Shown one piece after another: positions 1 to 6,000 of a DNA stretch of 64,000 nt. A program made the position numbers. The stretch is taken from IMG/VR virus record IMGVR_UViG_2841023034_000003; one strand, 5' to 3'. Source of the DNA: a virus. Positions within the stretch are counted from its first letter, which is position 1; each line of letters begins with the position of its first letter.

Positions 1-3000
1 GGGGCGTGTCGGCAATATTGGCGCGATCCGTGGGCGCTCACGTATCATTAGCACGTTGGCGCAACGTGTACGCGCTAACAATGCAGCGCAGATCACAGCG
101 CTGGACGTATGGCGCAAAAACAGCTTACGTCCACCAGCTGGCGACGATTCTGGCGTCTCCCTCTATACAAATTTTTCCCATGAGGCGACCCCCGCCGTTT
201 CCCGAAAATTTTCTGGCCGTTTCCCGTCGGTTGCCCGGATGGCTTTCTGCCCGTTCCTGAATTTCCCTGCGGGAACTGGTGGACGGAAAGAAAGGGGCGT
301 TTCCAGCCCCCTCCCCTCTTACTTGCCAGCCAGTATGTGAATCCGATTACTGGCGTGCATCTCTTTCAAGAACTCCCCGCAAGTGACCTTCCACGAGTCG
401 ATACCGGCTTCGTAAATGACGTTTTTGCACTTAAGAGCATTGTCGGCGATCCGCACACTCTGCGCGGTTGCTTCCTGGTCTGTAAAGTCGAACCCGGACT
501 CTGTTTTGATCCACACAGCAATCTGTGTTGCGAGCTCGATGAGTTTTGACTGACAGAACCGCCCGCTTCGAACCGGGAAGATAAACACCCCGAATCCTGA
601 GGTGGTGACATAAGCTTTTTCGAAGACACGCGTGAATCGACGGTTGCAAATGATGTCGTTGGCGATCTGCTGCTTCTCTTTCCCGGACAGCTGGATGGTC
701 TCTTCTTCGCGCCAGGCGCCCAGGATGTTCTTTTCAATATCGGAGTATGTGACAGAGATGGTGCCATGCGCGGGAGTGTTTACAGTGGCGATATAGTTCA
801 TTGTGATAATCCTTTAAACAACTTGTTTTCTAGTTGGTTTAATTATCGCAGTGGGTGTGAGGTGTCCAAGCGTTCTGTTTCGGCAGCTGGTGGCCGTCGG
901 GAAGTCGGTGGGTGTTTCGGTAGCCTGGCGGTAAGAGGTGGGTGTTTTTAGCCTGCGGGAAAGCAGGTGGTAATTGAGGGCCACCAGCATCGGTGGCCCT
1001 CCCCTCTCAATGAAGTAATCCGATGTCGATGGTATCGCCTGAATCAGTTAAGCGGATCATCAGCATAGCGAAGGCATTCAGTGGATAGCCGGCGTGCCAT
1101 TCCGGGAAGCGGTCATCGCGCATGAAATCGGCAATGTCATAAACGCTATCCTGATAATGGAAGAAGCGGGAGCTGGTTTGTTCGTCCGGTTCGACGTGAT
1201 CCATTTCTTTCTGCTCGGCCGGCGACAGGTCAAGCCAGGATTCCAGCCATACGTTTTCTGCTTTCGGGGAGATGGTGAAATCGGTCATGTGCGTTTCCTC
1301 ACTGCGTTAATAACTTGTTTTCTTGTTGGTGTTATTATCGCAACGCAGGAAAGGCATAAAACAACTTGTTTACGGGTTGGGGAAAATGGCGCGGGTTACG
1401 CGCCATTGGCTGTTTTACTGGACGTTGTAAACGGACTCCGGCAGATACTCTTCCAGAGAGCCGCCAGACACAATGGTGATGCCGTAAGAACCAACCCAGG
1501 TATTGTTGGCGCCCAGATTGCCCTCGATCATATCCTGAACCTGTGCCATCAGGTTTTCGAAAATGGTCTTCGGGTCTGTTCGATAATAGGCTTCAATGGC
1601 GGCCAGCAGAGTGTCCGAACCATTTTTCACGGATTGCTCGCCGACGGCATAAGCCTTCGAGCGATCGCGCTTAAGAGTTGTACGGGCCAGCTGGGTGGTC
1701 ACATGCGGAACAGCCGATTCGTCACGGAACTGAACGGTCAGCTGGGCCAGTTTATTGCCTTCTTCGTCAGTGCTGGATGCGTAGTAAAGGTCAAATACTA
1801 AATCTTCTTTGGTCAAACTCATTTTTACCTCCATGTAAATGCGTCGTAATACTATCGCCGTAGGTAAGTACTTACAATACAAAAAAACCCCGAAGGATCG
1901 ACGGGGCTGTCGTAAATTCGACTAATCTGTGTTGCACATGACTATGCTATGGCGAGGGTTGTTGCGCGTTGAATTTCCTGCTGGGCGACCTTGTTAACTT
2001 CCAGTAAAGCCAACTCCAGTTCTGACTCAGGCCAGATAACTTGTTTAGCTACCCACCCTTTCGCACTATAGCGCCTGACGCTCATTACGATGCGCTTGCG
2101 AGAAGTTTCGCCGAAGACGACAACGGTCTCTTTGAAAAGTCGGATGACTGTGCCGTTGGCCACAATGTCCATTAAAGTGATCGAACCGAGTACTGCAGGT
2201 TTGTCTTTGCGAGGCTGGAGTTTATCCAGTTTCAAAATCATCTCGGTATTCATTACACACTCCGTAAACAACTTGTTTTCTTGTTGGTGTAAATAATACC
2301 ATTGTGAAAACGGCCACCAAGCGAAGCGTTCCGGCATTCCGCTGGCCGCAGGCCACAATCACGCAAAAGCCACCTGCTGGTGGCGTTTTTCATAGGGCAT
2401 CTAATTCCATAAAGAAGGTCACATCCTCGCCTTCAACCAGTCGAGCGTCATCTGGCATCGTGTAGGCAAAGTCACCAGAGGCACCATTGTCGTACTCCTT
2501 CGACATTCTCACAGAGTCTTTGGCTAAATATTCATAACTGGTATCAAAATCTACCAGGGAGAGTTTCTCCGTGTTGTGTACGTGAACAGTGCCAAAATCA
2601 CCATCCCCATACGTGTTAACCATCGCCAGCACGTTAGACAAATCTGGCGCGATGTAAAACTCGTTCTGCCCCTCTACTGGTGACGTAATGAGAGCAGTGA
2701 AAGAAGTTTTGGCAGCATTACGAGTTGTAAAATAGTAATACCCAGACATTGCATTAACTCCTTTGTTTTCTTGTTGGTGTTATTATCGCAATAAGACATA
2801 GGCGAAAAAGCATTTTGTATCGGGAAGCGCTGGAAAAGCAGTGAGTATCCGGGAACGTATCGGGAGCACTTTTTACATTATTCTTCTCAACGCGCACCGC
2901 AGGGCTGGTGGGCAGTATTTTCCTCTTCCCGAAAACCTACTGAAACAGCTTGTGACCCTCGAACGCTCTGGCAGAATACGTATCAGCAACTGCGCGCAGC

Positions 3001-6000
3001 GGGAAGAAAGCCACCCGCGCATCAAACGGTGTACCGCCAGGGAATCAGCCGTCCCCGCGGCATTTTGTCTCTATACCGGCACGCCCACTTTCCATGACGG
3101 GAACCCAGCCGTTTCCCGAAAAAACTCCAGCCGTTTCTACTCAGGTAGCCAGCCTTTCCCCTGCGGGGACGCTCCCGATAGATTTTCGCGGTGGCCCTTT
3201 CACTCATTCGACCGCAGGGATGTTACGGGGGATAAAATCAGGACTTGAATAAATACGGGAAAGGGAGCGATCCCCCTCCATCCTCTCTCTCTTATATCTG
3301 TGTTCTTTCCTGACTCGAATAACCTCTCTTATGGGGACTCGTATCTCTCTTATTAGCGCTCTATACGGTGACCATTCGTATGGGAGAAAAGGCGACTTTC
3401 TTCTCTCTGCCGGTAAGTGGTTTTGCAGATGTTGTAGAGGTGGTTGTCTTGTGGTTTTCCTCTGGTCTGTATTCTTCGTTTTGGGGATAGTTCTTCTCTG
3501 TGTATGGAGTGATGGCGTGTGCGCTTTTCCTTTCGTTTACCTTGAGAGGTGGAAGTGTGGGTGATGTGGTTTCTGGTCTGTTGTCGTTCTCCGCATGTGA
3601 AGTAATGGCGTTCCCTACTTATCAGGAATTTGCGTTTTCTTTCGGGGTAAGAGTGGGTAAACGAGATGGCGCCGGGAGACTGTTCTGACCTGATCTTGTC
3701 TGGAGTTTCTTCCCGGGTATTCTCTTCCGTGTATTGGGGAATGGCGTTCAGAGAAATTGCCTTTCTCTCGTCGCTATTCAATGGTGGTCGAGATTTATTT
3801 CATGGGGTCGGTAGCCTGGGGCAAAGAGGTTGGTCTTTTCGGTAGCCTGGCAGGAAGAGGTGGGTATTGCCTGGGTGTGGGGTAATGGCAGTTCCTTTTC
3901 TTCGTTATCTTGTTTTGTTGTTTTCTTATCGCCTAAAACAATTTGTTTATATGCTCATTAAACGCAACGAGAGCGATTCTGAGCGTGTCTGTTTTGTGGT
4001 GGTATTAGGAGTCGTTTTTGGCGTTTTCGTCGCAGGGTGTTGGTCTCTGGTACGCTGCTTAACGGATATAAGAAGTGGCATGGCAAAACGTCAACTTTTT
4101 GGACCAAATCAGGGTAAAGCGTTGACTTTTCATTGATGTGTTATTTATTTGTTTTCTTGTGGGTGTTATGTGCGTAAAAGCCTTGCCACGCCTGGAGTGT
4201 ATGAAGTTGGAGAGTAGGGAAGAGGGGCGATCAACGAGTTCTTATAGAAATCCTCAATTAGTGACCGCCAATGTCAACGTGTTGCAGGCTATGGCTGCGC
4301 GTTAACTATCCGCCAGGCTATCGCATAGAGCTGCTCTCTAACTTCCGTATCCATCCCCACTCATTGGCCAGTGCCTTTAACTCAGCTGGTATGTTGTCAA
4401 ATACGGTGGCTATAAGGAGATGATCAGGTAGCTTACCCAGCTCGGCATCACGATCAACAGGAACCACGTCGTAAGCGGCATCCAGTATCATCTTGATATT
4501 GGCGATCGCCGCTTCGGAGATGTTGAATGTACGCAGTTCATCTGCCCAGCTATTGTCACGCATTCCGGCACGAACAATCCAATCATATTCTGTGCCGTGT
4601 GCCCAGTTCAGTCCGCTATCGGTGATTGGGTCAAAACAGGCAATTGGCAGTTGTTCAAAGTCTTCCGCGGTAACGTGCGCAGTGCTGATAATAGCTGTCT
4701 TGTAGGCTTCAGTAATTTTCAATATTACTTAAATCTCTTAACTAGTTGTTTTCTTATTTTAGTTATTATCAGAGATAAGAATAGGTAGAAAACATTTTGT
4801 TTGAAGCAGTGCGGCTGCCTCGATACTGTCATAGCGATAATCAGGCGCATAGTGTCAAAGCTAAGTTCAGATGTTAGGGGCAGGGCAAAGTTGAAATGTC
4901 CACTTTGTGCCAGGAGCGGAAGTTGCTAAGTTTGGTCTGCATTAATTTGAAGGGAGCAGAACACATGAGCCAAGAACGAATTTCTGCGAAATTTTTTTCG
5001 TGCACCGCGGAGGTGAAAGGTCATAAATGGTACGCCAGCACCGACTTTACCTAGCTTTTTTTAAGTTCAGCAGCAAAACCTGCCTTGCAGGTTTCCTGCG
5101 TCGGGATAATCGATACTGAACCTTGTGCATACCGTTCTCATCAGTTAAATTAAAGATTCCACACTCTTTACCGATATCACCTTGGTTCTTGCTTGTGATG
5201 CGTTCAGTGTTCAGCGCTGTTTGCTGTAGCCCTCCAGACTGATTACAGACTGCCTCTTAAAAGCCAATCCTTACTCTAAAGGGAACTTATGAGATTAAAA
5301 TACTCAGCACTCTTACTCGCCGTTGCCATTACAGGCTGTGATAACAAAAAAGACGTGATCGGTTGTTCCTCTGAAATGACCCAGTCAGCTCTCATGGATT
5401 TAATAAAAAAATCTGCTTATGAAGATCTCTCTGAACAGGTCGACAAATACCCTGACGTCACTAATCAGACCAAACGAAGCGCTTTGGACAAGATTAAACT
5501 GACCATCTCTGAAATCTCCACAACTTCAAGTGACACGGGCAGCACAATGAAAACTTGTGAAGGGACCGTGACGATGACCCTACCTGCGAACGAGTACGCA
5601 CAGCTTTCTGATGCTTACAGAAAGAACTTTAACCGTAATCTCGACAAGCAAATGGAAAGCCTGTCTTTGGATAACAACGCAAACGCCTTTTCAAAACGCA
5701 TCTCCTACACCGCACAGGCAACCGACGATCAGAAAAACGTTTTTGTGAAAGCTACTTCTAACAACCCAATATCAGTGGGTGCCGCTGCACTGACATCGCT
5801 TTCCATCATCAACCCGATCGTTGAGCAGCAAAAAATCCAGCAGGCTAAGGATGCCCAGCGAAGTCAAATTGAAGCGGAACAACAAGCACAACTCAGGGCG
5901 CAGCAACAGGATAAATATGAGGCGGAGCAGCAGGTTCAGCAAACCATTCAACAACAATCCTACCAGCAGCCTCAGCAACAAAAAGCTGACAACCTTGATC

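Follow-up and report, generated by a model that had tools for sequence, protein, structure and literature searches.

Rho requires untranslated, unstructured RNA in which C exceeds G over at least 80 nt, as in rut regions and Rho-loading leaders such as lambda tR1 and the rho leader, while RARE of the Salmonella mgtCBR leader antagonises Rho. Direct-repeat families occur in iteron origins and auxiliary repeats (lambda ori, P1 incC/incA, P4 ori/crr), and small early genes are said, in work attributed to Arbiol and colleagues in 2010, to be flanked by T4-type promoter-early/stem-loop (PeSL) cassettes that mediate modular shuffling. Here we analyse a 64,000-nucleotide stretch of viral DNA (IMG/VR record IMGVR_UViG_2841023034_000003; hereafter the window), which represents an SSU5/pHCM2-type phage-plasmid. 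It holds a 1.5-kb non-coding module (window 2763-4287) that includes a tract strongly enriched in G and T on the top strand. The module resembles rut-type leaders, iteron arrays and T4-type regulatory cassettes but is a clean fit to none of these. From sequence comparison we tentatively read the tract as the non-coding cargo of a leftward, repressor-gated early transcription unit, an explanation to which we give somewhat less than even chances. No description of this module, of early regulation or of a lytic origin was given in the papers found on SSU5/pHCM2-type phage-plasmids.

The first 6 kb of the window are 99.4% identical to a Klebsiella grimontii IncFIB plasmid and have counterparts in a total of 776 plasmid records and 10 phage records. 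In the closest record no gene is annotated between 2750 and 4318, and this 1.57-kb gap is matched in 936 plasmid records, with 70-77% identity in Citrobacter, E. coli, Enterobacter and Salmonella pHCM2, and 74% identity over 97% of the query in phage SSU5 itself. The module is syntenic in the Klebsiella, E. coli, Salmonella (pHCM2, SSU5), Citrobacter and Enterobacter relatives, where it keeps a constant place between variable cargo genes, and homology stops sharply at ~2763 and ~4287. Two anchor motifs lie 856-934 bp apart in 47 unique homologues, which form approximately five clades, the most distant being 54% identical. Conserved columns are clustered as short islands corresponding to two repeated motifs (Box A and Box B, described below), an A+T-rich stretch with a palindrome, and the right part of the module (3960-4287). 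The first-pass annotation, made from the sequence alone, had proposed a comparison with related elements; this finds the tract kept in position, length and box layout across genera. The Yersinia pMT1-type plasmids match a 62-bp promoter edge only. When viral contigs were scanned with a three-box pattern, SSU5-like loci only were recovered, and a scan of a genome collection with an A+T-rich anchor returned mostly chance matches, among which Kluyvera and Buttiauxella contigs are alone in belonging to the Enterobacteriaceae and, by anchor match only, are possible relatives. Non-phage IncFIB/IncHI1B Klebsiella plasmids of 220-260 kb (L006 4001-4746, NZ_CP055163 and similar; L numbers denote loci of relatives) also carry 760 bp of the module (window 3524-4284) at 93-95% identity. 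This fragment adjoins an IS5-family insertion sequence, similarity stops abruptly at its left edge, and it looks like a recombination fossil.

The tract is the compositional maximum of the 64 kb, with G+T peaking at 68% (600-nt windows) against a window mean of 50.5% (standard deviation 3.2%). In 200-nt windows from 3401-3600 to 4001-4200, GC skew ranges between +0.19 and +0.35 and AT skew between -0.29 and -0.62; the strand bias placed at ~3250-3900 by the first-pass annotation is thus present and reaches further right, to ~4200. G+T varies between 62 and 71% by clade, and is 59-69% in variable columns and 78% in conserved ones. At the level of sequence comparison, this shows the strand composition being maintained independently of the tract's sequence. 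As the skew is kept in every clade and in the variable columns, it appears to be a property of a single strand, which a double-stranded array of protein sites would not need, and the composition is, on this comparison, under selection at the single-strand level. An RNA read from the minus strand (~640 nt) would comprise 38% A, 29% C, 18% G and 15% U, with a C/G ratio of 1.6-1.8 in the main clades. The 5' leaders of neighbouring minus-strand genes have a skew of the same sign, but weaker. A replication-type skew switch is ruled out by the cumulative skew of the whole plasmid, which is monotonic and lacks a turning point at the module.

The tract shows no sign of coding. Compared with eight relatives, substitutions in 3290-3930 are spread evenly by position modulo 3 (533/549/513, p = 0.54), in contrast to those of the neighbouring methyltransferase gene used as a control (88/30/51 and 31/6/5, p ~1e-7). 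Reading frames vary from clade to clade, and the 96%-identical L012 differs from the window by a 1-nt indel. Long open frames on the minus strand are mostly due to its T-poor composition, for which the null 95th percentile is 132 codons. A coding tract is ruled out by the lack of 3-periodicity, the broken frames and the composition null, and the low-complexity open reading frames (ORFs), the only ones seen in the tract at first pass, prove to be artefacts of composition. One exception is a 227-codon stop-free frame on the minus strand at approximately window 3410-4090, which occurs in the pHCM2 clade only (L002, L005, L010 and others) and exceeds the composition-null 99th percentile of 164 codons; it spans the candidate operator introduced below, and is 167 codons long in 93-95%-identical relatives. 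Two further ORFs were rejected: a 24-codon ORF (4136-4062) behind an orphan promoter has lost the ATG among pHCM2-clade relatives, and a rightward ORF of 83-89 amino acids (3867-4136) shows no protein-level constraint, with ~61% amino acid versus ~80% DNA identity as judged by eye.

Folded RNA is likewise ruled out. Rfam searches at E <= 1 gave nothing credible, the two matches being far under the gathering scores (a microRNA model at 1282-1364, outside the tract, and a Clostridiales small-RNA model at 3201-3293), and a search for tRNA and transfer-messenger RNA (tmRNA) gave no match. The alifold structure conservation index (SCI) is about 0-0.33 over the tract on both strands (120-column alignment windows), and minimum free energy (MFE) z-scores are -1.6 and -0.6. 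In 120-column alignment windows (55-120 nt each), the minus strand folds with an average MFE of -6 to -18 kcal/mol.

The left end of the tract is marked by a hairpin (3258-3279) that is terminator-like on the minus strand only. A terminator scan gives a minus-strand call in the window and a clearer one in L007, and the hairpin is found in 25 of 25 variants, with a weaker U-run in the pHCM2 clade. On the minus strand, the G+C-rich hairpin with a U-run, kept in relatives, that is expected of an intrinsic terminator is therefore present. The minus-strand RNA is the more stable in all 23 variants compared (mean -12.2 versus -7.2 kcal/mol), each of which uses one to five G.U pairs that become A.C mismatches on the opposite strand. 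Its 5' arm is purine-rich and its 3' arm pyrimidine-rich, with 91% of cells paired. The minus-strand-only terminator score and the greater minus-strand stability point to leftward transcription.

The position of the tract tells of a similar orientation. The first-pass annotation had described duplicated flanks with different cargo, and the flanks are indeed homologous: the left block recurs (175-235 versus 3089-3150, 76% identity, E = 1.6e-8) and includes exact copies of GCCGTTTCCCGAAAA at 194-208 and 3108-3122 (two versus 0.14 expected in the window). The right-hand motif, GGTAGCCTG-N5-AAGAGGTGGGT (Box B), had been reported as recurring once; the recurrence is real, but there are three exact copies rather than two (919-943, 3810-3834 and 3841-3865), against a chance expectation of zero. 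The spacing between left and right blocks is retained, at 725 bp (194 to 919) and 733 bp (3108 to 3841). The cargoes are unrelated: gene 319-801 in the first cassette and the tract in the second give a tblastn E of at least 1.8, with blastn matches confined to the flanks, and this absence of similarity disposes of the tract as a pseudogene or decayed copy of that gene. In cassette 1 Box B precedes the gene 319-801 promoter, and in cassette 2 it is at the right end of the tract, while a hairpin follows the gene in cassette 1 and the tract in cassette 2. Judged from these flanks, the arrangement shows the tract filling the slot held by a leftward gene in cassette 1. The cassette 1 hairpin comprises 14 pairs in a fold of -30.2 kcal/mol (262-330, minus strand) and aligns only weakly with that at 3258-3279 (290-324 to 3259-3293, 72% over 36 nt, E = 0.89), so the hairpins of the two cassettes may be homologous.

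The left block is a direct-repeat array of CCAGCCGTTTC repeats with exact 22-bp phasing, of which relatives including L003 have extra copies. Conserved RNA structure was sought in this block, and the SCI is no higher than in the tract. The left block is situated between convergent units in pHCM2-type relatives, where a rightward gene runs towards it. Five Chi octamers (GCTGGTGG or its complement) are located in the first 3 kb, at 131, 886, 981, 2376 and 2904. An 18-nt inverted repeat (127-144 / 880-897) with two of them inside brackets cassette 1, one is within a terminator-like stem (2369-2384), and that at 981 is in a hairpin read by eye as the terminator of gene 1007-1288; GGCTGGTGGGCAG at ~2904 is kept in most aligned relatives.

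Control of the putative unit is suggested by a 13-bp palindrome, AAACAAnTTGTTT, which occurs 10 times in the window versus 0.35 expected. The copy at 3936-3948 is kept in 11 of 11 aligned relatives. Within the first 5 kb, the part that was checked, the palindrome adjoins the promoter cassettes of small leftward genes, and because of this recurrence we infer it to be a candidate operator of the element's master repressor; its scatter is like that of the C1 operators of P1. The promoter cassettes themselves are 45-60-bp promoter/5' untranslated region (UTR) units (TGCGATAAT-AACACCAACAAGAAAACAAGTTGTTTA) that precede most small leftward genes, and the genes behind them differ in identity between relatives. 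They are comparable to T4 PeSL cassettes in that the unit recurs six times before small leftward genes, with flanks duplicated and cargo variable. They differ in that one slot here holds a conserved non-coding tract, and the flank-block sequences differ from PeSLs. In the lysogenic transcriptome of the E. coli LF82 phage-plasmid Cyrano, CYRAN_103, the called ORF over the right part of the module, is at the floor (~5 FPKM, fragments per kilobase per million), while CYRAN_102, just upstream in the leftward direction, reaches 57 FPKM (PMC9928086). On these data the module is silent in lysogens, and transcription of its neighbour stops at the right edge. No induced-state transcriptome was found in the literature searched, the lysogenic Cyrano data being the sole transcriptome found.

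The conserved islands within the tract are dominated by Box A (core RTGTGRRGTAATGGCRKT), an asymmetric motif that has one orientation throughout. The tract holds four to five of these GTAATGGC boxes at fixed offsets of ~265, 360, 490 and 630 from the left anchor in all clades, including the 54%-identical one; spacings among relatives are 90-99, 111-136 and 138-144 bp. The periodic (G)TAATGGCG motifs noted at first pass are at 3511, 3604, 3740 and 3884, the last of which had been placed at 3873, and an additional GATGGCGC is present at 3665. Box B has a 31-bp tandem unit with two to three copies in the tract. The CGGTAGCCTG within Box B (top strand, at 921-930, 3812-3821 and 3843-3852) matches the core of the RfaH ops element, GGCGGTAGnnTG, which lies on the non-template strand of the operon it regulates. 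An RfaH ops/JUMPstart role was rejected, as CGGTAGCCTG would be on the template strand of a leftward unit, no rightward operon follows and the distant clade has GATAGCCTG; the match is probably due to chance. An inverted Box B core (CCGCCAGGCTATCG) is located at 4310-4323, across the stop codon of gene 4318-4722, and in a leftward read-through transcript would pair with Box B; this stretch is outside the right edge of the conserved module and absent from the aligned relatives examined. To the right of the boxes, the A+T-rich stretch has a G+C content of ~30-40%. The dyad beyond it shows one pairing-preserving double change (GTCAAT...ATTGAC) in three E. coli-type loci, while its single changes fit one strand in some loci and the opposite strand in others. 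The coordinates of all features are collected in Table 1.

Table 1 Features of the non-coding module and its surroundings, in window positions.
Feature	Position	Strand	Remarks
G/T-rich tract (top strand)	3290-3930	- if transcribed	would be an A/C-rich, U/G-poor, nearly structure-free untranslated RNA
Hairpin then T-rich tail	3258-3279	-	left end of tract; terminator-like on minus strand only
Left block, copy 1	175-276		GCCGTTTCCCG at 194 and again at 216, 22 bp apart; downstream of gene 319-801
Left block, copy 2	3066-3170		CTCTATACCGG box and CCAGCC(G)TTTC at 3105, 3127, 3149
Cassette 1 cargo gene	319-801	-	160 amino acids, phrog_1641, function unassigned
Hairpin, purine arm/pyrimidine arm	274-306	-	directly past stop codon of gene 319-801
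Box B array, copy 1	889-976		exact box 919-943 and degenerate neighbours, upstream of gene 319-801 promoter
Box A1	3494-3517		TTCTCTGTGTATGGAGTGATGGCG
Box A2	3586-3610		GTTCTCCGCATGTGAAGTAATGGCG
Box A3	3721-3746		TCTCTTCCGTGTATTGGGGAATGGCG
Box A4	3870-3890		CCTGGGTGTGGGGTAATGGCA
Tandem 31-bp Box B pair	3810-3865		copies 3810-3834, 3841-3865
Degenerate B-like cores	3434-3446, 3541-3563, 3641-3660
A+T-rich stretch	3895-3960	-	promoter-like orphan remnant 3918-3942 and perfect palindrome AAACAATTTGTTT 3936-3948, kept in all clades
Most conserved non-coding part	3960-4287		dyad, orphan D1-type promoter/UTR element 4129-4171, CGTTGAY motifs
Dyad	4085-4131		AAAACGTCAAC-N25-GTTGACTTTT
CGTTGAY motifs	4131, 4229, 4273
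Promoter/5' UTR cassette, D1 family	803-875	-	TTGGAC-16-GATAAT then AACCAACTAGAAAACAAGTTGTTTA; palindrome AAACAACTTGTTT at 816-828
Promoter/5' UTR cassette copies	803-884, 1295-1376, 2253-2297, 2743-2824, 4726-4807		orphans 3918-3942, 4129-4171
Palindrome AAACAAnTTGTTT copies	816, 1359, 2266, 3936, 4790, 6719, 9267, 23112, 36433, 51300
Module left edge	2763-2830	-	D1/D2-type promoter of left-hand gene
Six small leftward genes (window 1-4800)	319-801, 1007-1288, 1415-1822, 1942-2241, 2390-2749, 4318-4722	-

The minus-strand-favouring hairpin, the conserved repressor-type palindrome and the gene-slot position together suggest an untranslated A/C-rich RNA that is transcribed leftward and gated by a repressor. 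The leftward unit would be held silent by the master repressor in lysogens. Upon induction or infection, leftward transcription would produce an untranslated RNA of ~0.65-0.9 kb, A/C-rich, U/G-poor and almost unstructured, with its 3' end at hairpin 3258-3279. It would carry four to five GCCAUUAC boxes and two to three ACCCACCUCUU...CAGGCUACC boxes (Box B) as single-stranded landing sites, and these conserved boxes would bind a phage or host factor. More speculatively, it might exert its effect at the level of RNA or of transcription, serving as a platform for factors that recognise C/A-rich RNA lacking structure. The predicted minus-strand RNA is untranslated and weakly structured, with C>G over at least 80 nt; since it has the properties that Rho requires, it could constitute a very long Rho-loading zone, serving as a termination barrier or decoy between the lysogeny-expressed cargo on the right and the repressed early genes on the left. 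The steps up to the leftward unit draw on comparative evidence, and from there we infer the Rho/decoy step. The likeness to rut regions would hold for a leftward RNA, which would be untranslated, nearly unstructured, rich in C over G and far longer than ~80 nt. Unlike known rut sites, which it exceeds ~8-fold in length, the tract keeps its invariant boxes at set offsets and has an intrinsic-type hairpin at its end; in the most distant clade, moreover, C is approximately equal to G.

Several observations weigh against this explanation. A transcript of the tract has not been observed, a canonical sigma-70 promoter conserved upstream of the tract was looked for and not found, and the promoter-like elements at 3918-3942 and 4129-4171 appear degenerate. 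In the most distant clade C/G is only 1.1, which weakens the involvement of Rho. A sponge or Rho zone has no obvious need of fixed box offsets, and an intrinsic terminator alone is sufficient for insulation. No partner was found in searches for (ARN)n enrichment and GcvB-seed pairing. Finally, covariation in hairpin 3258-3279 is no greater than in shuffles, as an all-purine arm pairs with any all-pyrimidine arm.

The main rival, possible though doubtful in our judgement, is that the module acts in cis, as DNA, in lytic replication, being either an origin or an origin-associated site array. In such an element, the CCAGCCGTTTC repeats with their 22-bp phasing would be bound, together with Box A and Box B, by a phage initiator, melting would take place in the neighbouring A+T-rich stretch, and the repressor palindrome would silence the origin in lysogens, possibly via transcriptional activation as in lambda and P1. 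Three families of same-orientation direct repeats at conserved positions, the exact phasing of the left block, the A+T-rich 3895-3960 adjoining a conserved operator, and silence in lysogens are all consistent with this, as is the absence of the module, promoter edge excepted, from Yersinia pMT1-type plasmids; the element also encodes DnaE, a DnaB-like helicase, RNase HI, ligase and a RecA-like protein. These direct-repeat families, with the phasing, the A+T-rich stretch and the operator, are also what the module shares with the iteron origins of lambda, P1 and P4. The arrangement expected of an iteron origin, three or more direct repeats of 17-22 bp phased at ~22 bp, is seen in CCAGCC(G)TTTC at 3105, 3127 and 3149, but Box A, whose copies are 90-144 bp apart, is not of this kind. 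However, the 22-bp repeats and Box B also flank the ordinary gene 319-801, so they are not specific to an origin. The genes next to the module differ by clade and include no conserved initiator gene, and the module contains neither the DnaA box TTATNCACA nor the IHF site WATCAANNNNTTR. The Box A spacings vary and are not in helical phase, and a search of the module for 10-11-bp periodicity, indicative of intrinsic DNA bending or helical phase, found none. The monotonic cumulative skew also argues against an origin here, and a double-stranded site array leaves the skew of the non-conserved columns unexplained. A lytic origin had been among the candidate functions suggested at first pass; its positive support is limited to the direct repeats and the A+T-rich stretch.

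The origin used for plasmid replication is elsewhere. The plasmid replicon (32190-34480) is 29 kb from the module and comprises a Rep_3 RepA (32851-33906) with ~25 iterons on both sides, of the CCACTGTAGAGAG / CTATCCACTGTAGTGAGTAG type with 21- and 39-40-bp spacing in both orientations, and DnaA boxes near RepA at 32193 and 32568. This iteron origin (RepA, 32.3-34.5 kb) is unrelated in sequence to the module. When scored with a position weight matrix (PWM) built from the RepA iterons, no site in 1-4400 exceeds 3.7 bits, compared with 11-31 bits at the real origin. The negative PWM scan and the location of RepA and iterons elsewhere exclude the module as plasmid origin or RepA-bound locus. Resemblances judged by eye were also set aside as chance: that to Tus-Ter lacks the invariant GTTGTAAC core, that to a DnaA box (TGTGGGTAA) is present in some copies only, and the others are to BaeR/CpxR boxes and to sigma-54, sigma-32 and CsrA sites.

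A less demanding alternative, which we consider unlikely, is that the module is a mostly passive spacer or insulator formed from decayed regulatory cassettes (orphan promoter/UTR copies and terminators), kept for separating transcription units and as a homology anchor for cargo swaps, in the manner of T4-type promoter/stem-loop cassettes. The layout of the annotated K. grimontii plasmid places the late structural operon and terminase genes to the left and nucleotide-metabolism and replication genes to the right, with a plastic zone of small leftward genes of unassigned function between the late operon and the replication genes. Cargo on both sides of the module varies by clade up to its sharp edges, lysogen expression falls across it, and two orphan cassette copies (3918-3942 and 4129-4171) have no ORF behind them. 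Divergence of the tract from L003 (~31%) is near the 26% seen at third codon positions of the control gene. Passive DNA of this kind does not account for short boxes that are near-invariant down to 54% overall identity, for the conserved length and box offsets, or for a skew that is greatest in the conserved columns, all of which point to a specific function beyond that of a spacer. The plasticity of the neighbourhood is further illustrated by a methionyl-tRNA synthetase or GIY-YIG homing-endonuclease gene to the right of the module in some clades (L007 4443-4533, L086 5268-6903 of the E. coli clade, L004 3893-4729 and L009 4628-4777), a few genes away in L007/Cyrano and one gene away in L004 and L009.

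Rather improbably, the tract might encode a structure-free A/C-rich sponge RNA of the early lytic phase, selected for its composition and titrating a host factor for unstructured C/A-rich RNA. Rho would be the prime candidate, making the tract an RNA-based Rho decoy, with small RNAs with G/U-rich seeds such as GcvB as the alternative, and a phage protein would be brought in by the invariant GCCAUUAC boxes. Such an RNA, lacking structure, with short linear motifs that recur and with composition rather than sequence kept between them, would recall sponge RNAs such as CsrB/RsmZ, CrcZ and the prophage anti-sRNA AgvB; unlike these, the tract is not enriched in GGA or (ARN)n, and its GcvB-seed pairing is no better than chance. 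An Hfq (ARN)n sponge was rejected for lack of enrichment, and a GcvB sponge because the duplexes (-23 to -30 kcal/mol) are no better than those of shuffles and the best sites are not conserved.

The tract is highly unlikely to encode a cluster of structured small RNAs, or RNAs derived from repeats, for example mimics of CRISPR repeats or antitoxin repeats of the ToxI kind. The roughly periodic layout (95-145 bp) is suggestive, as is one Box A copy with the 28-nt layout GTTCTT-CTCC-GTGTAT-GGAG-TAATGGCG, which recalls a type I-F repeat. Against this, the 4-bp hairpin is restricted to the A1 copy of some clades and absent from the distant clade, and the copies are degenerate and 90-144 bp apart, unlike CRISPR or ToxI, with none reported by Tandem Repeats Finder. 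The cluster of small RNAs proposed in the first-pass annotation also sits poorly with the lack of a credible Rfam match or a tRNA/tmRNA, the SCI of 0-0.3 (about 0 on both strands) and the z-scores above. A packaging (pac/cos) or partition site, although hinted at by direct repeats in non-coding DNA and by two ParB-N-terminal-domain genes ~6 kb to the left, is very improbable with TerL and a putative TerS ~12 kb to the left (which speaks against the pac site suggested at first pass), a small ParA-like ATPase pair and RepA elsewhere, and no genome-end evidence here, phage records beginning at unrelated positions. The small AAA ATPase and the next gene at 35.7-36.7 kb of NZ_CP056704 may be the partition pair, as an unconfirmed candidate.

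The module is among the largest conserved non-coding stretches within the examined part of the element, and is positioned with lysogeny-expressed cargo genes on one side and repressed early genes on the other. Phage-plasmids of the SSU5/pHCM2 type occur commonly among clinical Klebsiella, E. coli, Enterobacter and Salmonella, and are carriers of resistance genes. Deciding between a barrier or decoy RNA and a lytic origin would provide a handle on induction and on the exchange of cargo around the module. If the Rho reading were true, the tract would possibly represent a new phage way of handling Rho.

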